Of a stretch of DNA of 64,000 bases, positions 1 through 8,764 are shown in pieces (positions within the stretch are counted from its first letter, which is position 1; every line of letters starts with the position of its first letter). The position numbers and the translations under genes are program-made. This DNA comes from Candidatus Dormiibacterota bacterium (lineage in GTDB: Bacteria; Chloroflexota; Dormibacteria; Aeolococcales; Aeolococcaceae). The stretch is from NCBI GenBank assembly GCA_963718525.1, contig OY970355.1, positions 832,001 through 896,000 on the forward strand. Reading direction: 5' to 3'. The notes beneath the pieces are model-generated. The model saw only the letters and a program-made list of their open reading frames with translations, did not search any database and was not told the origin of the DNA.

Positions 1-1
1 G

Positions 2-157
2 ACGGCGGTGTACAACCCCGACACGCGGACCGCCACGGTCACGATCCAGAACGCGCCGTCCGGGACGTTGACCCTCGACATCGCAACCACGCTTGCCGAC
101 TTCGAGGGACAGGCGCTTGCGCACAGCTTCGAGACCAAGGTCCAGGCAAACTCCTAG
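2..157 (+). CDS. 3' end of a probable secreted Ig-like (Big_5-type) domain protein, partial
   Basis: Open frame from window edge to TAG 155-157: TAVYNPDTRTATVTIQNAPSGTLTLDIATTLADFEGQALAHSFETKVQANS; beta-strand pattern ending in a D-x-x-G-x-x-L motif. Confidence 0.5.
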   Translation, partial: TAVYNPDTRTATVTIQNAPSGTLTLDIATTLADFEGQALAHSFETKVQANS

Positions 158-915
158 CCGGCTGTGCTCCCAGTGGTGCACCACAGCGTTGCCCGAACCG
201 GGATGCGCATGGTCCCATCAGCGGCCGTGCAGCGCTCCAGCGCGCGCTGACACATCGCTCGACCTTCGCGCAGGGCCGGCTCGGATGTGTCGGTCAGCTC
301 GGCGGCGATCGGCCGTTCGACCACCATCGCCGCCCAGTAGTCCGCAATACCGTCGAAGCGCACCACGTCGTTGAGCGTCACCGCCTCCCAGTGCGTTGCT
401 TGCACGGGATATGGGCCGGCGAGCGCGCTTGCCAGGAAGAGGGAGTCAATTCCAGTGACGGCGCGCAGAGCGTCGAGCAGTGCGACTTCGTGCATCGGTG
501 GTTCCGACGCGTCCCACGTGAGCACGCCGGCGCGGCCACCGGGACGCGTTGCGCGCCTCGCTGCGTCGAGCAGCAACTCGCCGTCCCAGAACCCGTAGGT
601 GCAGAGCGACGCCACGCGGTCGCATGACGCGTGGCCCAGCGGGATGCCGCCTCCAGCAGCGAGCAATGTCGATGCACCACACCCGGTGTCCGAGACATCA
701 CGCTCGGCGTCTCCGAGCAGTGCGGTCTCCGTGTCGACGAGCATGACGTGCCCGCGAGTCCCGACTGCACTGCCAAGCGCAACCCCACCAACGCCCGTGT
801 CGCAGATGAGGTCGCACGCGGCCTCACCCGCTTGCACGCCGAGCAGCGCGACCACCTGCTCGGCAAGCGGCCGAAGCACCGCGCGTGCGTACAGCCGCCC
901 GAAGCGCGGCTCCAC
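154..915 (-). CDS. Class I SAM-dependent methyltransferase-like protein (UbiE/Methyltransf_11 type), degenerate motif I
   Basis: GTG 915 just after the accC stop; ACDLICDTG (motif I-like), LVD, IPLGHASCDRVAS, TRPGGRAGVLTW. Confidence 0.7.
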   Translation of the reverse strand: MEPRFGRLYARAVLRPLAEQVVALLGVQAGEAACDLICDTGVGGVALGSAVGTRGHVMLVDTETALLGDAERDVSDTGCGASTLLAAGGGIPLGHASCDRVASLCTYGFWDGELLLDAARRATRPGGRAGVLTWDASEPPMHEVALLDALRAVTGIDSLFLASALAGPYPVQATHWEAVTLNDVVRFDGIADYWAAMVVERPIAAELTDTSEPALREGRAMCQRALERCTAADGTMRIPVRATLWCTTGSTAG

Positions 916-919
916 GCCG

Positions 920-2362
920 TCAGCCCGAGACGGCGATCGCGGCGGAGATGGCAGCGACGCGCGCCGGGTCGCGGACCACGCGCCGGAACGGCTCCTGCTG
1001 TTCCGCCCATGCGTCCGCCGCCGCAACCAGCTCCGGATGCTGCTCGATGAACGCGGTGCTGTACGTCCCGGCACGAAAGTCCGGATCAGCGATCACGGCA
1101 AGGTGGTACGCGATGTTGGTGCGTATCCCGTTGATGACGTACTCCAGCAACGCGCGGCGCATCCGATCGAGCGCCATGTCACGCGTCGGTCCATAGGTGA
1201 TCAGCTTGGCGATCATCGGGTCGTAGTTGGGGGAGACCAGCCCGGCGCTCACCAGCGAGCTGTCGACGCGCACACCCGGACCTGCGGGCTCGTGGTAGCC
1301 GGTCACCTGCCCGGGCGAGGGAAGAAAGCCCTTCGCGTAGTTCTCCGCATTGATCCGGCACTCGACGGCATGTCCGCGCGGCACCACCTCCTCCTGGGTC
1401 AGCGACAGCCGCTCCCCAGCTGCGATGCGCAGCTGTTCGGCCACGAGGTCGATGCCGTAGACGAGCTCGGTGACCGGATGCTCGACCTGCAGGCGGGTGT
1501 TCATCTCGAGGAAATAGAACTCACCCTCGCGGTAGATGAATTCGACGGTGCCGGCGTTGACATATCCGACCGCCTTTGCGGCAGTGACCGCGGCGTGTCC
1601 CATCCGCGCGCGGGTCGCCGCATCGATGACCGGTGAGGGCGCCTCCTCGACGATCTTCTGATGACGGCGCTGGACGGAGCACTCCCGCTCTCCGAGGTGG
1701 ATGACATTGCCGTGCGTGTCCGCAAGCACCTGGATCTCGATGTGGCGCGGCTCCTCGAGGTAGCGCTCGAGAAAGATCGTGTCGTTCCCGAATGCTCGCT
1801 GCGCGGTGCTCTTCGCGGTGTCGAATGACGCGCGGAGCTCGGCCTCGTCGCGGGCGACGCGCATCCCGATGCCGCCGCCACCCGCGCTCGCCTTGATCAA
1901 GACGGGGTAGCCGATCTGCGCTGCTGCGTGGACCGTCTCATCGAGATCCCCGAGCGCACCGGTCCCAGGGACGACTGGGACGCCCGATTCGCGCATGCGC
2001 TCGCGAGCCGGCACCTTCTCTCCCATCGCCGCCATGGCATCAGGCGTTGGCCCGACGAAGACGATGCCGCTCTCCTCGCACGCACGTGCGAGCTGCTGGT
2101 TCTCACTGAGAAAACCGTAGCCGGGATGAATCGCCTGAGCGCCAGTGGAGCGAGCCGCGTCGATGATCCGGTCGATGACAAGATACGACTGTGCCGCAGG
2201 CGCCGGGCCGATCTCCACCGCCTCGTCGGCGAGCAGCACGAATGCGGCGGTGCGGTCGGCATCGCTGTGCACGGCGACTGTTCGCACGCCGAGGTCGCGG
2301 CACCCGCGGAGGATCCGCAGCGCGATCTCACCACGGTTGGCGATGAGGACTTTGTCGAACAT
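920..2362 (-). CDS. accC: Biotin carboxylase subunit
   Basis: KVLIANRGEIA, GYGFLSEN, KASAGGGG, ERECSVQRRHQK, FLEMNTRLQVEHPVTE, ECRINAE all intact. Confidence 0.93.
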   Translation of the reverse strand: MFDKVLIANRGEIALRILRGCRDLGVRTVAVHSDADRTAAFVLLADEAVEIGPAPAAQSYLVIDRIIDAARSTGAQAIHPGYGFLSENQQLARACEESGIVFVGPTPDAMAAMGEKVPARERMRESGVPVVPGTGALGDLDETVHAAAQIGYPVLIKASAGGGGIGMRVARDEAELRASFDTAKSTAQRAFGNDTIFLERYLEEPRHIEIQVLADTHGNVIHLGERECSVQRRHQKIVEEAPSPVIDAATRARMGHAAVTAAKAVGYVNAGTVEFIYREGEFYFLEMNTRLQVEHPVTELVYGIDLVAEQLRIAAGERLSLTQEEVVPRGHAVECRINAENYAKGFLPSPGQVTGYHEPAGPGVRVDSSLVSAGLVSPNYDPMIAKLITYGPTRDMALDRMRRALLEYVINGIRTNIAYHLAVIADPDFRAGTYSTAFIEQHPELVAAADAWAEQQEPFRRVVRDPARVAAISAAIAVSG

Positions 2363-2384
2363 CAAGCAACCGCCCGGATGCTGG

Positions 2385-4178
2385 TCATGCGTCGATCTGT
2401 ATGAGCGGCGCCCGCGGGCTCACCACAACGCCTTCGGTCACGTACACCTCGGTGACCGTACCTGTCCGCGTCGCCGTGATGTCGTTCTGCATCTTCATCG
2501 CCTCGAGCACGCAGACGACGTCACCCAGTGCGACGCGGTCGCCAACCTTGACGTTCACCTTGAGCAGCAACCCCTGCATCGGCGATACCACCGTCCCCTC
2601 TCGCACCGCCGGCGCCGCAGGTGTCGCCGGCGCTGCGACAGCAGCACCACCGGCATCAATGCCGCCGATGATGCGCACCGCATAGCTCTGCCCGTCGACC
2701 TCCACAGTCAGCTCGCGAACCGGCAGCGCCTGTGGCTCGCCGGCCTGCGCCTCACCCGGGTCGGCAGCGACTTCGCTCGGGGGTTCTGACGTCCCCGCAA
2801 CCGGGGCGACATCCGGCTCGTCCCCGAGCCGTTCGGCGACGGCGTCGCCGCGTACGAGGTTGAGATAGGCATTCGGGAACAGCGCGTACGTGACCATCGC
2901 GGCGAGGTCGGGCTTCGCATATCCCTCGCGAACCAGCTCGCGGCGCGTCGTCTCCATGACCGGCTCGAGCAGGTCGGCGGGGCGGCAGGTGATCGGCTCT
3001 TCGCGGCCGTTCACCAGACGCCGCACCTCCGGGTCGATCGCTTCGGGAGGCTCGCCGTAGAGGCCGAGACAGTAGTCCTTGATCTCCTGGCTGATGGTCG
3101 CGTAGCGGTCACCCTCGACCACGTTGTATACGGCCTGGGTTGCCATGATCTCGGTGAGCGGGGTGATCAGCGGTGGGTAGCCGAGCTCGGCGCGGACCTG
3201 GACGACGTCGGCCTCCACCTCGGCGAGCCGTCCCAGCGCATTGCGCTCGCGCAGCTCGGCAATCGCGTGGCCCATCGCCGAGGGCGGAAGCAAACCGCGC
3301 AGCGCCGAGGTGTCGAGCCGGGCCGCCAGCGGATCGACGACATCGGTGTAATGGACGAGCTCCTGCTCGAGGACCAGCGCAGCGGCTGCGACCCGCTCGA
3401 GGTCGAGGCCGCAGTCGACTTCGGTTCCCGCGAACCCGGCAATCAACGCCTCGGCGCCTGGCATCGACGCACCGCCCGCAAGTGGGGACAGAGCGCAGTC
3501 GGCTCGGTACGCGCCGGCGAGCGCCGCGGAATGGCAGGCCAGCGCGGCCATCCCCGTTTGCGCGGAGATCGAGACCGCCACCGGCACCCCAGCGGCTTCG
3601 CGGATCACCTTGACCGCCCGTGCGGCCGCCGCAGCGCCGAGGACGCCGAGGGGATCGTGGAGGCAGATGGTCGGATACCCGGCGTCGACCAGCCTGCGAG
3701 CCACGTCCCCCAATCCTTCAAGGCCGCGACCCGGCACCACGTTGTGGACGATGACCCCTTCGGCCTGCTTGCCGGTCGCCGCGATCGCGATCGAGCATCG
3801 CTCCAGGTTGCGGACGTCGTTGAGCGGGTCGTAGCAACGGAAGATGTCGACGCCCGCCTCGGCCGACGCCTCGATGAAGGCATCCACAAGGTCGTCCGAG
3901 ACCTGGCGGTGCCCCACCAGCGACTGACCGGCGATCAGCGCCAGGAATGGCGTGATCGGTGCAGCGGCCCTGATCGCGCGCAGGCGCTCGAATGGGTCCT
4001 CAGCGAGAAATCGCAGCGATGCCTCGAAGGTCGAACCGCCGAAGACATCGAGAGCGGCAAAGCCGCAGTGATCGAGGGTCTCGGCGACCGGCAGGACGTG
4101 GCGGAGGCGCAGCCTGCTGACCATGAGCGACTGCTGCCCATGGCGGAGCGACGTCTCCACCAATTCGAGGCGGGGCAT
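2385..4178 (-). CDS. Pyruvate carboxylase subunit B / oxaloacetate decarboxylase alpha-like protein with C-terminal biotinyl domain; carboxyltransferase site degenerate
   Basis: GGSTFEASLRFLAEDPFERLR, DPLNDVRNL, VRAELGYPPLITP, GLYGEPP, ITCRPADLLEP, biotin motif EAMKMQN. Confidence 0.88.
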   Translation of the reverse strand: MPRLELVETSLRHGQQSLMVSRLRLRHVLPVAETLDHCGFAALDVFGGSTFEASLRFLAEDPFERLRAIRAAAPITPFLALIAGQSLVGHRQVSDDLVDAFIEASAEAGVDIFRCYDPLNDVRNLERCSIAIAATGKQAEGVIVHNVVPGRGLEGLGDVARRLVDAGYPTICLHDPLGVLGAAAAARAVKVIREAAGVPVAVSISAQTGMAALACHSAALAGAYRADCALSPLAGGASMPGAEALIAGFAGTEVDCGLDLERVAAAALVLEQELVHYTDVVDPLAARLDTSALRGLLPPSAMGHAIAELRERNALGRLAEVEADVVQVRAELGYPPLITPLTEIMATQAVYNVVEGDRYATISQEIKDYCLGLYGEPPEAIDPEVRRLVNGREEPITCRPADLLEPVMETTRRELVREGYAKPDLAAMVTYALFPNAYLNLVRGDAVAERLGDEPDVAPVAGTSEPPSEVAADPGEAQAGEPQALPVRELTVEVDGQSYAVRIIGGIDAGGAAVAAPATPAAPAVREGTVVSPMQGLLLKVNVKVGDRVALGDVVCVLEAMKMQNDITATRTGTVTEVYVTEGVVVSPRAPLIQIDA

Positions 4179-4214
4179 GCGGGGCAATTCTAGGGCTACG
4201 CCCGGAGCACCCTC

Positions 4215-4712
4215 CTACTCGAAGTGGAATCCTTCGGGGAGTTGCACTTTGGAGCGCATGCGGGCGCGCTCCTCCTTGATCCGAGCGGCGACGTCCGGGT
4301 CGAAGAGACCGATGATCTCGGCGGCGAGGTGCCCGGCGTTTCGCGCGCCCATCGCCCCGACCGCGACGGTTGCAACGGGGATGCCGGGCGGCATCTGCAC
4401 GATCGAGAGGAGCGAGTCGAACCCCGCGAGCGGCGTCGCGGCGAGCGGCACGCCGATCACCGGCAGCGTGGTCAGCGACGCCAGCACGCCTGGGAGGTGC
4501 GCTGCCGCTCCAGCGCCGGCGATGAGCACCCGGAGCCCGCGCTCGGGCGCGGCGAGCGCGTACGCGCGCACGACGTCACCTGCTCGGTGCGCCGACATGA
4601 CCCCGATCTCCCAGCCGATCCCGTAGCCGTCGAGCACCTCGCCGCAGGTGTTCATCACCGGAAGATCGGACTCGCTCCCGACCACGATCCCGACGCGCAC
4701 CGGCTCGCTCAC
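4215..4712 (-). CDS. purE: N5-CAIR mutase (class I PurE)
   Basis: VGSESD, SAHR, AGAAAHLPG, PVIGVP, SIVQMPPGIPVATV. Confidence 0.96.
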   Translation of the reverse strand: MSEPVRVGIVVGSESDLPVMNTCGEVLDGYGIGWEIGVMSAHRAGDVVRAYALAAPERGLRVLIAGAGAAAHLPGVLASLTTLPVIGVPLAATPLAGFDSLLSIVQMPPGIPVATVAVGAMGARNAGHLAAEIIGLFDPDVAARIKEERARMRSKVQLPEGFHFE

Positions 4713-6004
4713 GACTGCACGCCGGCGGTGACCGGTCGTCCGATGTCCGTACGCTGCTGCATGCCGTCGAAATGCACGCGCGCAAGATTGCCATACGCGC
4801 GTGCGCGGGCGGCCCCGACGTCGGCGCCGAGCGCGGTCACGCAGAGCACGCGGCCGCCTGCGGTCCGCAGCGTGCCGTCCTGGTCGCGCGTTGTTCCCGC
4901 GTGAAAACAGAGCACGTCACCGTCGAGCGCATCGGTCCCGGTGATGACGTCACCGCGACGCACGTCGCCGGGGTATCCAGCCGCCGCCGCAACCACGCCG
5001 ACCGCGGCACCGTGTGCAGCGGCGGCGATACCCGCAGTCACCTCACCGTGCGCGCATGCTGTCAGCACGTCGAGCAGGGACTCGTCAAGCAGCGGCACGA
5101 CAACCTGTGTCTCCGGGTCGCCGAAGCGAGCGTTGAACTCGAGGACGCGAACCCCGTCGCGCGTGAGCATCAGGCCCGCATAGAGACAGCCGACAAAGGG
5201 ATGTCCCTGCTCGTGGAGTGCGGCGATGCAGGGATCGAGCACTGTGCGGGTCACCTCCTCGAGGAATGCGCTCGAGGCGACGTCCGGGGGCGGCGCCACG
5301 GCACCCATGCCGCCGGTGTTGGGCCCGCGATCGCCGTCGTGGATGCGCTTGTGATCACGGGCCGGCACCAAGGTGCGCACATTGCGACCGTCGCTGAGTC
5401 CGAAAACGCTCACCTCGGGTCCATTGAGCATCTCCTCGACGACCACGTGACGGCCCGCCTGGCCGAAGCGAAGCTCGCCGAGGCATTCGTCAAGCGCGCG
5501 CTCCGCCTCCTCGAGATTGGCGCAGACCATGACCCCCTTGCCGAGCGCGAGCCCGTCGGCCTTGACCACGCATGCCCCTCCCAGCTCGCCGATGAAGGCC
5601 ACGAGCTTGGTGCGATCGTCTGCTCCACCCGCGCGCCACCGCGCCGTGGGAATCCCCGCCAACTCCATCACCTGCTTCGCAAACGTCTTGGACGACTCGA
5701 TTCGCGCGGCTGCGGCCGTCGGACCGAAGACGGACACGCCTCGCTGGATGCATGCGTCGGCCACGCCGGCCGCGGCCGCGGCATCGGGGCCGATGATCAC
5801 CAGGTCCACCGAGCGTTCCGCCGCAAGACGGGCGACCGCGGGGGCATCGGTGACATCGACGGCGACGTTCTCGGCAATCTCAGCGGTGCCCCCGTTGCCC
5901 GGCGCGACGATCACCGCCACATCGGGCGCATCGCGACGGCAGGCCCAGGCCAGCGCATGCTCGCGTCCGCCGGATCCGACGACGAGAACCCGACCTACTC
6001 CCAT
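4709..6004 (-). CDS. purD: Phosphoribosylamine--glycine ligase
   Basis: [52 protein letters not shown]. Confidence 0.96.
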
Positions 6005-7581
6005 TCGATCGTCGACGGCGGTTTGCTCGAGATGTCGTAGACGACCCGGTTGATGCCCGGGACCTCGTTGACGATGCGCCGGCTGATCAGTCCCAGCACG
6101 TCGTAGGGGACTCGCGCCCAGTCAGCGGTCATGCCATCCTCGCTCTCGACGATGCGCACCGCGACGACGTTCCCATAGGTGCGGAAGTCGCCCATCACGC
6201 CCACCGACGAGATCGGCGTCAGGATCGCAAACGACTGCCACACCTTGCGGTAGAGGCCGCTGCGTTTGATCTCGTCGATCACCACCCAGTCGGCGGCGCG
6301 GAGCGTCTCGAGGCGCTCACGGGTCACCGCCCCGATGATGCGGATGGCAAGACCGGGACCCGGAAACGGCTGGCGGAACACCATGTCCTCCGGCAGCCCG
6401 AGCGCGAGTCCGACGTTGCGCACCTCGTCCTTGAACAGGTAGCGCAGCGGCTCGACGAGCTCGAAGCGGAGATTCTCGGGGAGCCCGCCCACGTTGTGGT
6501 GCGTCTTGATCTTGTTGGCGTTGTGGGTGTCGTGTGATGTCGACTCGATGACGTCTGGGTAGAGCGTCCCCTGGGCAAGGAAATCGATCGATCCCAGTCG
6601 CGTCGCTTGCTCCTCGAAGACGCGGATGAACGTGGCCCCGATCCGGCGGCGTTTCTCCTCGGGGTCGACCACGCCGGCGAGGGCGTCGAGAAACTGGTCG
6701 GTGGCGTCGACGTGGACGAGACTGATGTGGCGCTGCGTCCGCATCACGTCGATGACGCGGTCGCCCTCGGCACGCCGGAGCAGGCCGTTGTCGACGAAGA
6801 CGCAGGTGAGCTGGTCACCGACGGCGCGATGCACGAGCGTCGCGGCCACCGCCGAGTCCACACCTCCGCTGAGCGCGCAGATCACCTTGCCGTCGCCGAT
6901 CTGACGCCGGAGCGCGCTGATCGTCATCTCGATGAACGATGCGGCCTCCCAGGTGCCTGCGCATGCGCAGACGTCAAAGAGGAAGTTGCGCAGGATGTCG
7001 CGTCCCAGGGGTGTGTGCGCGACCTCGGGATGGAACTGGATCCCGTAGCGCTTGCCAGGCCCGATGAAGGCTGCACAGGCCGAGTTGAGGGAGTGGGCAA
7101 TCGGACGGAAGCCCGGGGGGAGCGCGGTGACGACGTCACCGTGCGACATCCAGACCGCAAGCTCCGCGGGCAGCTTCGCGAACAGCCCGGCGGCCTCGTC
7201 GACAGTCACGGACGCGTGTCCATACTCCCGGCGTTCTGCGGGAGCGACCCCACCACCGAGGTCGACCGCGAGCAGATCCATCCCATAGCAGATGCCGAGA
7301 ATCGGGATGTCGAGCTCGTACACCGCCGGGTCGGGATGGGGTGCACCGGCTTCGAACACCGATGCAGGACCTCCGCTGAAGATGAGGCCGCGCGGATTGC
7401 GGCTGCGGATCTCGTCAGCGCTGATCGTGCCAGGCACCAGTTCGCAGTACACCTTGGCCTCGCGCACCCGTCGCGCGATCAGCTGCGAGTACTGGCTTCC
7501 GAAATCGAGGACGAGGACGGTGTCCTGAGCGATCTGCACAGGCGTGCGCGCCACCGCGCCTGCGTCAGTCGCGACCGTCAT
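5995..7581 (-). CDS. guaA: GMP synthase (glutamine-hydrolysing)
   Basis: [56 protein letters not shown]. Confidence 0.97.
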
Positions 7582-7603
7582 CGCTGTCCGTCCACCCCGA
7601 GCA

Positions 7604-8764
7604 CTACACCCCCATCCCGACACGCTGTTCACGCTGCTGCACCTTTCCCTCGGTCTTGATCGAGGGCGCGATCACCATCTCGGTTTCCTGGAACTCGGCG
7701 ATGTTCCGTGCGCCGCAGACACCCATCGCCGTCTTCAGCGCACCGACGAGGTTCATGCTCCCGTCGTCGACGTGGGCCGGACCGAAGAGGATCTCGCGGA
7801 GTGTTCCCTTGATACCGGTGCGAATGCGCGTTCCACGTGGCAGGTTCGGATCCGGAGTCGCCATGCCCCAATGGTTGCCATGCCCTGCGGCTTCCGCCGA
7901 CGCCGCGAAGATCGAGCCGATCATCACTGCATCCGCACCACTCGCAAAGGCCTTCGCGACGTCGCCCCCGAGCCGCATGCCGCCGTCCGTGATGATCGCG
8001 ACCCGCTCGCCACTGCGGCGGAAGTGGTCGTCGCGAGCGGCCGCGCAGTCGCTCGTGGCCGTGACCTGAGGCACGCCCACGCCGAGCACCGCACGGGTGG
8101 TGCACGCGGCACCCGGGCCGACGCCGACGAGCAGTCCTTTGATGCCCGTGTCCATCAGCTCAAGGGCAGTGGCGTAGTCGACGCAGTTGCCGGCAACCAC
8201 CGGGATGTCGACAGAGTGGGTCAGCTCCGAGAACGACAGATGCTTGTACGACTTGCTGACGTGGCGGGCTGTGAGCACGGTCCCCTGCACCACCAGCATG
8301 TGCGCTCCCGCTTCCTGGACGATCGGCGCCCGGCGCTCCGCGTGCGCAGGAACCGTGGAGACCGCGCAGGGCACCCCTGCACTGGTGATCTCCTCGATTC
8401 GCTGGCCGATGAGCCCGTCCTGCACGGGCGCTGTGTAGATCTTTTGCAGCAGTGTGTTGATCTGATCCGGCGGGGAGTCGGCGATAGCGGCCAGCACCTC
8501 GGCCGGATCCTCATACCGCGTCTGGACACCGTCGAGATTGAGCACCGCAAGCCCACCCAAACGGCCCATCTCCACCGCGAAGTGGGTGTCCACGACACCG
8601 TCCATGGCGGCGGCGAGGAAGGGAATCTCCAGCGTCGTCCCGTTCACCGCAAAGGAGACGTCGATTTCGGCCGGGTTCACGGTCACGCGACCAGGGACAA
8701 GTGCAACCTCATCGAACCCATAGGCGCGCCGGGCACGCTTGCCTCTGCCCAACTCGAACTCCAT
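7604..8764 (-). CDS. guaB: GuaB3-family IMP dehydrogenase (no CBS domains)
   Basis: [18 protein letters not shown], catalytic loop [29 protein letters not shown]. Confidence 0.9.

Follow-up and report, generated by a model that had tools for sequence, protein, structure and literature searches.

A 64,000 nt stretch of DNA from a soil bacterium of the class Dormibacteria (the window; positions 832,001 to 896,000 of contig OY970355.1) encodes a protein resembling PycB, the β subunit of two-subunit pyruvate carboxylase (PC), next to the gene of a biotin carboxylase. Judged from the sequences, this PycB-like protein is a vertically inherited orthologue of the two-subunit PC β subunit. Its four metal-ligand positions and the arginine of the pyruvate site are all replaced, and its biotin carrier domain is intact. 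On balance, we think it probable that this pseudo-carboxyltransferase has been retained as a docking scaffold and biotin carrier.

Active site, fold and constraint of the PycB-like protein

The protein was aligned residue by residue with 5ks8_C (two-subunit PC β), 2nx9 (OadA) and 1s3h (the A59T mutant of transcarboxylase 5S; 1rqb gave the same score, and the 1s3h alignment was used). Against these structures RHGQQS takes the place of RD(G/A)HQS, with Asp changed to His16 and His to Gln18; LLRGQN has become LIAGQS, with Ala86 for Arg; IKDMA has become LHDPL, with His177 for Lys and Pro179 for Met; and HxH has become SIS (Ser206 and Ser208). EAMKM, with Lys565, is unchanged, and the Thr of the VTP motif is retained as Thr342. 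Each degenerate motif listed by the first-pass annotation, which had been made from the DNA letters alone (RHGQQS, ALIAG, LHDPLG and SIS), was found as read in the alignments. The positions of the four metal ligands (Asp, carbamylated Lys and two His) are now occupied by His, His, Ser and Ser, and that of the pyruvate-binding Arg by Ala; these roles are presumed from the structural literature on PC, OadA and 5S. We take the Arg of LLRGQN to be the equivalent of the pyruvate-binding Arg621 of Rhizobium etli PC, and the Thr of the VTP motif to be the catalytic Thr (R. etli Thr882), a name corroborated by PDB titles only.

The same substitutions were recorded in 14 aligned homologues (61–88 % identity) and in 27 loci of two families, that of the source genome (f1) and its sister (f46). 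Contigs assembled from runs of two other studies (X5 and X6) covered parts of the gene near-identically, and among the 40 differences listed, in a table with 79 further rows, none fell in codons 16, 18, 86, 177, 206 or 208. As the substitutions recur in homologues and the contigs of the other studies are near-identical, they are not due to chance or to assembly error.

The architecture is that of the two-subunit PC β subunit, with a carboxyltransferase (CT) TIM barrel, a PYC_OADA domain, BT-like strands and a biotin carboxyl carrier (BCCP) domain, and the closest solved structure is 5ks8_C (E 8e-106). PYC_OADA and Biotin_lipoyl passed their Pfam cut-offs (scores in Table 2), the HMGL-like barrel model reached 26.0 bits, under its 29-bit cut-off, and the NCBIfam domain model NF006761, 'pyruvate carboxylase subunit B', scored 486.8 bits against a cut-off of 402. 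The protein missed the cut-offs of TIGR01108 for oadA (440.3 against 756.5 bits) and TIGR00531 for BCCP (49.6 against 115.2 bits), and was far below those of the equivalogs for 5S and single-chain PC; its proposed mode of working is that of AccB, to whose family it does not belong. Of the features of a working PycB it has the architecture, the Thr, the biotinyl Lys and the partner, and lacks the metal site and the Arg. The full PycB/OadA architecture and the intact carrier described in the first-pass annotation are thus both borne out, the carrier motif being invariant in all 45 class loci tabulated. Its forecast that the gene would be misannotated as pyruvate carboxylase also came true. NF006761 is passed, and 'pyruvate carboxylase subunit B' is what NCBI and JGI call this protein and related ones in metagenome-assembled genomes (MAGs) labelled Candidatus Dormibacteria or Dormibacteraeota.

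An AlphaFold model made from 43 sequences had a mean predicted local distance difference test score of 87.5, above 90 throughout the barrel and below 50 in the linkers. It placed two strands (residues 490–497 and 500–507) at the hairpin of the BT-like element and superposed on OadA (2nx9_B) with a deviation of 1.6 Å over 450 columns.

Ratios of non-synonymous to synonymous substitution (dN/dS) were estimated within the genus (82–90 % identity) by the Nei–Gojobori method; dS was 0.6–1.0, near saturation, so that the ratios are approximate. They were 0.06–0.10 for the barrel, 0.10–0.12 for the rest of the CT domain, 0.06–0.13 for the BT-like hairpin, 0.11–0.14 for BCCP and 0.11–0.13 for the whole gene, as against 0.2–0.7 for the two linkers and 0.06–0.09 for the adjacent carboxylase. 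The barrel is therefore held as tightly as its enzymatic neighbour, in keeping with the maintained protein that had been supposed at first pass.

Loss of constraint, taken as invariance in nine of nine canonical sequences and variability in the dead forms, was found at residues 84–86, 89, 96, 149–155, 172, 182, 208, 259 and 329. Among them are the LLRGQN strand (84–86 and 89), the residue that follows KDMAG and the second of the ligand His residues; the 149–155 loop and other places account for the rest. Within the CT domain (residues 4–450), 74 positions are fixed in canonical and dead forms alike, and 11 positions carry new, clade-specific fixed residues (for example D30H, Y93H and M179P).

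Distribution and descent within the Dormibacteria

One PycB-like copy with an unbroken frame was present in 118 of the 121 class genomes (Table 1). The class tallies (gene presence, phosphoenolpyruvate (PEP) carboxylase, small carrier and second carboxylase) include up to eight genomes flagged as unpublished (G164, G180, G198, G214, G224, G225, G235 and G236). The motif comparison covers 45 loci, all from genomes without that flag.

Table 1. State of the PycB-like active site and occurrence of related genes in five families of the class
Family	PycB-like gene	Loci in motif comparison	Active-site residues	Second carboxylase	PEP carboxylase	Small carrier (strong match)
f4	10/11	4	Canonical: RDANQS, LLRGQN, IKDMAG, HTH, VTP(T/A)(S/G)Q	11/11	0/11	11/11
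f3	36/36	9	Asp, Arg and both His kept; Lys in 8/9; KDM to KDT; catalytic Thr to Ala	2/36	28/36	33/36
f2	35/36	5	Asp, Arg and His-x-His kept; Lys to Glu; Thr to Ala	0/36	26/36	30/36
f46 (sister)	9/10	3	Asp, Lys and second His lost	0/10	2/10	1/10
f1 (own)	27/27 plus own genome	24	All four ligands missing in 20 loci; the other 4 retain the first His	4/28	18/28	24/28

Within f1 the replacement residues differed from genus to genus. Among the 24 loci, position 16 was His in 14, Tyr in four, Trp in two and Gln, Ala, Ser or Phe in one each; position 86 was Gly in 10, Ala in six, Arg in four and Ser in four; position 177 was His in 18 and Tyr in six; position 206 was Ser in 18, His in four and Ala in two; and position 208 was Ser in 11, Ala in six, Cys in four and Thr in three. 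Such varied replacements at the former ligand positions fit relaxed constraint and not a newly fixed site. Position 342, by contrast, was Thr or Ser in all 27 loci of f1 and f46.

In a quick maximum-likelihood tree of 64 rows, the class sequences formed one clade (support 99) in which each family was monophyletic and f4 was sister to all other class families (support 96). A single class clade with the canonical f4 as sister to the rest indicates that a canonical two-subunit PC β subunit was the starting point and that the gene decayed where it stood. Canonical residues were seen only in the distant family f4 and in none of the close relatives, and the loss is common to f1 and f46; it is old and shared by the clade, and not the recent decay that the first-pass annotation would have taken as a refutation. 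One relaxation appears to have had at least two outcomes, f2 and f3 being disabled by replacement of the Thr by Ala, with the metal Asp and both His kept, and f1 and f46 by loss of metal ligands.

In the five f2 loci (L063–L067) the Glu could take the place of the Lys carbamate, and the f2 form may bind metal and may act beyond biotin-dependent transfer.

Partner carboxylase, proposed role and rival explanations

The neighbouring carboxylase passed TIGR00514 for accC (666.1 against 626.5 bits) and, in two alignments to solved carboxylases, retained GGGG-x-G, ERECSxQRRHQK, EMNTRLQVEHPVTE and ECRINAE, so that the adjacent AccC taken as intact at first pass does carry its catalytic ATP-grasp motifs. 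It is not PurK by TIGR01161, whose cut-off it missed (25.6 against 318.4 bits). Its glycine-rich lid reads GGGGIG, as in all 14 class carboxylases examined, partners of canonical PycB included; in the two solved carboxylases aligned it reads GGGGRG.

The carboxylase ends in ...ARVAAISAAIAVSG, and an Ala-rich C-terminal helix was present in 13 of 13 PycA-type carboxylases examined from f1 to f4; the second carboxylase of G083, described below, lacks it. The BT-like hairpin of the PycB-like protein was near-invariant in an alignment of 14 homologues. According to the structural report on Methylobacillus flagellatus PC (PMC5059739), which defines the BT-like domain of the two-subunit PC β subunit, the terminal Ala-rich hydrophobic helix of the α subunit is buried in a barrel of strands from two β subunits, and deletion of the helix abolished the holoenzyme. 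Given that the Ala-rich tails and the near-invariant hairpin are kept, the pair is read as still assembling.

The source genome is a single 3.34-Mb contig with a marker completeness of 88.9 %. It contains one PYC_OADA protein, and its single Biotin_carb_C match is the carboxylase adjoining the PycB-like gene. It also encodes PEP carboxylase, accD with accA (a fabH-like stretch comes before accD in one reading frame) and three PccB-type transferases that have no α subunit close by. Two biotinyl domains were found, the C-terminus of the PycB-like protein and an 81-aa ORF (G000:C1:1291384-1291626). The latter, with the motif ELMKM, is an orphan among hypothetical genes (L074:6385-6627).

Across the class, loss of the active site travels with loss of the second carboxylase (Table 1), and the canonical f4 differs in fitting ways, always having a second carboxylase and never PEP carboxylase in its 11 genomes. 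In G083 (f1) the second carboxylase lies in an operon with an enoyl-CoA hydratase, a transferase and a small carrier, which looks like the methylcrotonyl-CoA carboxylase type; of such a block the source genome retains the small carrier only, the other three genes being lost. In G160, G172 and G255 the second carboxylase is 1–4 kb from the small carrier. Five genomes without a strong small-carrier match (G092, G146, G204, G213 and G246; 90–93 % complete) were rechecked with the Pfam biotinyl family. In all five the only xMKM biotinyl domain was the C-terminus of the PycB-like protein, the other matches being lipoyl or GcvH-like, and each has one carboxylase, accD with accA and one or two PccB-type genes. 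In these genomes it must therefore be the dead PycB that carries biotin for acetyl-CoA carboxylase, unless assembly failed to recover a small gene.

The proposed role follows the first-pass suggestion of a scaffold and carrier passing carboxybiotin to another acceptor, which is favoured by the single carboxylase, the orphan carboxyltransferases and the sole biotinyl domain in five of five relatives. The PycB-like protein would dock the PycA-type carboxylase through its BT-like element and the carboxylase's Ala-rich C-terminal helix, and the carboxylase would charge the biotin tethered on the long Pro/Ala linkers. The pair would then act as an ATP-driven module of biotin carboxylase and carrier, whose carboxybiotin would be spent in trans at AccD/AccA, yielding malonyl-CoA, and at the PccB-type transferases that lack an α subunit. 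Pyruvate carboxylation would have been lost, with PEP carboxylase presumably covering anaplerosis where it is present.

Several observations sit less easily with a scaffold and carrier. The separate 81-aa carrier means that the carrier role is not unique to the PycB-like protein in the source genome, and a small separate carrier also occurs in most f1 (24 of 28), f2 (30 of 36) and f3 (33 of 36) genomes. The failure to find a gene of about 240 nt in MAGs that are 90 % complete is weak evidence. PEP carboxylase was not found in eight of 10 f46 and 10 of 28 f1 genomes, so that loss of PC is not always visibly compensated. Four f1 genomes (G083, G160, G172 and G255) keep the dead pair despite a second carboxylase, and the pair must therefore have a value beyond being the sole carboxylase. 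Constraint on the barrel at the level of a working enzyme exceeds the obvious need of a passive scaffold, and the 11 clade-specific fixed substitutions could mark a re-shaped site.

The last points lead to a rival that we think unlikely but give appreciable weight, namely that the barrel has been repurposed for metal-free binding of a different ligand, so that it would either transfer carboxyl groups to a new acceptor or, as a sensor in a regulatory role, gate the supply of carboxybiotin. Its dN/dS equals that of the adjacent enzyme, the 74 fixed CT positions include R15, Q19, Q88, D178, D230 and E246 near the old pocket, 11 positions have acquired fixed residues, Thr or Ser342 is universal in f1 and f46, and the pair persists even beside a second carboxylase. 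However, the former ligand positions differ greatly from genus to genus, there is variation too in the residues that follow Thr-Pro (TE, IE, AQ, PE, RE and AE), the loss of constraint is located in active-site loops, and no candidate substrate gene accompanies the pair, its neighbours being purine genes or unrelated inserts. It is quite improbable that the protein is still a carboxylase of pyruvate or another 2-oxoacid with the metal held by other residues, such as His16 and His177. Two of the four replaced ligands are His in the source genus (His16 in 14 and His177 in 18 of the 24 f1 loci), the catalytic Thr and the pyruvate contacts Arg15 and Gln19 remain, and PEP carboxylase was not found in some relatives. 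Yet other genera of the clade have Tyr, Trp, Phe, Ala, Ser or Gln at position 16, Tyr, Phe or Leu at 177 and Ser, Ala, Cys or Thr at 206 and 208, the Arg is lost in 20 of 24 f1 loci, the HMGL-like model is below its cut-off, and the source genome has PEP carboxylase. Nor is a decaying gene or an assembly artefact without function credible to any real degree: the catalytic residues are gone, but 118 of 121 class genomes have the gene in an unbroken frame, dN/dS is 0.11–0.13 overall within the genus, and the window is matched by the contigs assembled in two other studies.

The position of the gene invites a further explanation, in which the pair replaces PurK and its carboxybiotin would carboxylate the N5 amine of 5-aminoimidazole ribonucleotide, feeding the class I PurE encoded just upstream. 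If this were true, the carboxylase and the metal-free barrel would form a biotin-dependent synthetase of N5-carboxyaminoimidazole ribonucleotide (N5-CAIR), and purine synthesis in the class would depend on biotin. In its favour, purE is 36 nt upstream here and at most 300 nt upstream in 28 of 50 loci, and the pair has purE on one side and purB-purC...purF on the other. A search for purK found none in the source genome, where the remaining ATP-grasp genes are of other kinds, and none in 16 class genomes. PurE is similar to class I mutases, and N-carboxylation should need no metal. Nevertheless, f4 also lacks purK though its PycB is canonical and is parted from purE by unrelated genes on the opposite strand; many families of the phylum (for example f12, f13 and f20) have PurE without purK or any PYC_OADA protein; and the pocket residues are not conserved between genera. 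As purK is missing both where PycB is absent and where it is canonical, its lack needs no such substitute, and we rate this explanation very improbable. Retention of the PycB-like protein as a docking scaffold and biotin carrier is the explanation that we prefer to these four.

Gene neighbourhood and comparison with known systems

The features of the locus are given in Table 2. A tight minus-strand run extends over positions 1–7632 of the window and comprises guaA, purD, purE, the PycB-like gene and the biotin carboxylase gene, the last two separated by about 20 nt. An in-frame TTG at 4187 would extend the PycB-like ORF to 2385–4187 on the minus strand; the ATG at 4178 is the start in homologues and in the database gene call P0006 (597 aa).

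Table 2. Positions within the window of the PycB-like gene, its parts and its neighbours
Feature	Position	Strand	Remarks
PycB-like pseudo-carboxyltransferase with biotin carrier	2385..4178	-	597 aa from ATG 4178; stop codon 2385-2387
TIM-barrel (HMGL-like) carboxyltransferase core, residues 4-290	3318..4178	-	Alignment to 5ks8, 2nx9 and 1s3h
Codons of former ligands	His16 4140-4142; Ala86 3930-3932; His177 3657-3659; Ser206 3570-3572; Ser208 3564-3566	-	
C-terminal carboxyltransferase part (PYC_OADA domain), residues 291-450	2838..3317	-	PF02436, 97.4 bits; Thr342-Pro343 motif retained
Pro/Ala-rich linkers around a conserved two-strand hairpin (VRELTVEVDGQSYAVRIIG, residues 490-507)	2604..2837	-	BT-like element of two-subunit PC
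Biotin carboxyl carrier domain, residues 529-600	2388..2603	-	PF00364, 61 bits; biotinyl Lys565 in EAMKM (codon 2493-2495)
PycA-type biotin carboxylase	920..2365	-	481 aa from TTG 2365; homologues begin at ATG 2362
C-terminal Ala-rich helix of the biotin carboxylase, ARVAAISAAIAV	about 923-967	-	
purE, class I-like N5-CAIR mutase	4215..4712	-	Upstream neighbour of the PycB-like gene (gap 36 nt); context only
purD	4709-6004	-	Upstream, in one strand run with the PycB-like gene; context only
guaA	5995-7632	-	Upstream, in one strand run with the PycB-like gene; context only

Synteny was compared at 50 loci; three of these from genomes flagged as unpublished (L037, L047 and L050) enter this count only and are outside the motif tables and trees. 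The carboxylase gene was no more than 100 nt downstream of the PycB-like gene in 35 loci and farther off in 12, five of them with a distance of up to about 1 kb and seven with 5–8 kb; three loci were cut by contig ends. Apart from the 28 loci with a close purE, the gene was 0.5–4.7 kb upstream in six and was not seen in 16, 13 of which have flanks of 1.5 kb only. The inserts found between purE and the pair or within the pair (alpha/beta hydrolase, DUF6812, NDH-2, methyltransferase and 3-hydroxyisobutyrate-dehydrogenase-like genes) gave no clue to a substrate; the last lies between the PycB-like gene and the carboxylase gene in three f3 genomes (L060:7802-8611, L061:7857-8690 and L062:4881-5714).

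The pair is part of a one-strand purine super-cluster (G000:C1:821178-828430, L111, together with positions 1–7632 of the window) in which guaA, purD, purE and the pair are followed by two unassigned ORFs, purB, purC and, further on, purF; a gene for an Ig-like protein on the opposite strand lies between the pair and purB. Among 151 genomes of the phylum, purE exceeded its cut-off in 100 and purK in 36, tallies that include the unpublished-flagged G038 (purE) and G145 (purK). A class I-like PurE without a detected PurK is found in the source genome and in all 16 class genomes sampled. Three ATP-grasp genes are clustered at G000:C1:2382987-2386932; their best NCBIfam matches fell far short of the cut-offs, and neither PurK nor PurT is encoded there. 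An apparent PurE::PycB fusion on another contig (P0104, 554 aa, with both Pfam domains) was rejected as a gene call running through frameshifts at the purE end.

The nearest known system is PycA/PycB of M. flagellatus (PDB 5ks8), which gave both the best sequence match (E 8e-106) and the best fold match. Its β subunit has the same order of CT barrel, PYC_OADA, BT-like strands and BCCP, and its α subunit, like the carboxylase encoded next door here, ends in an Ala-rich helix (PMC5059739). The differences are that the Asp, carbamyl-Lys, His, His and Arg of that enzyme are replaced in the PycB-like protein and that the partner carboxylase is the sole one in its genome. The tree shows a direct descent of the PycB-like protein from a two-subunit PC of this kind.

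OadA and the transcarboxylase 5S subunit bind Zn or Co through the residues that are replaced here. The fold is shared with Vibrio cholerae OadA (2nx9) and Propionibacterium shermanii 5S (1rqb/1rqh), with root-mean-square deviations of 1.6–1.7 Å and TM scores of 0.90–0.95 relative to the target, whereas the TIGR01108 score given above separates the protein from OadA. With AccB, the BCCP of heteromeric acetyl-CoA carboxylase, the PycB-like protein would share its job, one carboxylated carrier serving separate transferases, but it bears a 450-residue dead enzyme domain and scores well below the TIGR00531 cut-off. The proposed job is also that of the α subunits which, in actinobacteria, serve more than one acyl-CoA carboxyltransferase. 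Plant BADC proteins, which resemble the BCCP of plastid acetyl-CoA carboxylase but lack biotin, are a precedent for a catalytically disabled subunit kept in a biotin carboxylase system (10.1101/2023.08.31.555777). In that case the disabled part is the carrier, which has an inhibitory role, whereas here the carrier is intact and the transferase disabled.

Proteins of Gaiellales (for example P0207, P0210 and P0248) are like PycB/OadA in length and domain order, have lost the ligands (RLLSQE, LLHDPAG and LYCQG) and retain EAMKL; their source names are oxaloacetate decarboxylase or biotin carrier of acetyl-CoA carboxylase. They branch with the canonical P0147, apart from the Dormibacteria clade (support 99 on both sides), and because of this separate placement the loss of ligands looks convergent. 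P0245 (Desulfoluna spongiiphila by source name) and P0247 are also of PycB length, with replaced ligands (TAGQES, MTLSAL, CLMDTEG and LSIVN) and EAMKM, in a group named 'biotin/lipoyl-containing protein' or 'pyruvate carboxylase subunit B'. Searches of the literature on Dormibacterota pyruvate carboxylase, inactive PycB carboxyltransferases and a single biotin carboxylase in shared use brought up no account of such proteins among the papers listed, and a Dormibacter paper checked for carboxylase, biotin and purine mentions Rubisco only.

Models built from genomes of Dormibacteria would attribute pyruvate carboxylase to these organisms because of a name that the sequence does not support. Within one class there is a natural series that begins with a canonical enzyme, passes through two intermediates disabled in different ways and ends in a form without ligands that is nevertheless strongly conserved, and this series is suited to asking how a catalytic subunit turns into a structural pseudoenzyme. 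The apparently independent loss in Gaiellales suggests a path taken more than once, on which the carboxylase and the carrier of PC assume the role of AccC and AccB.

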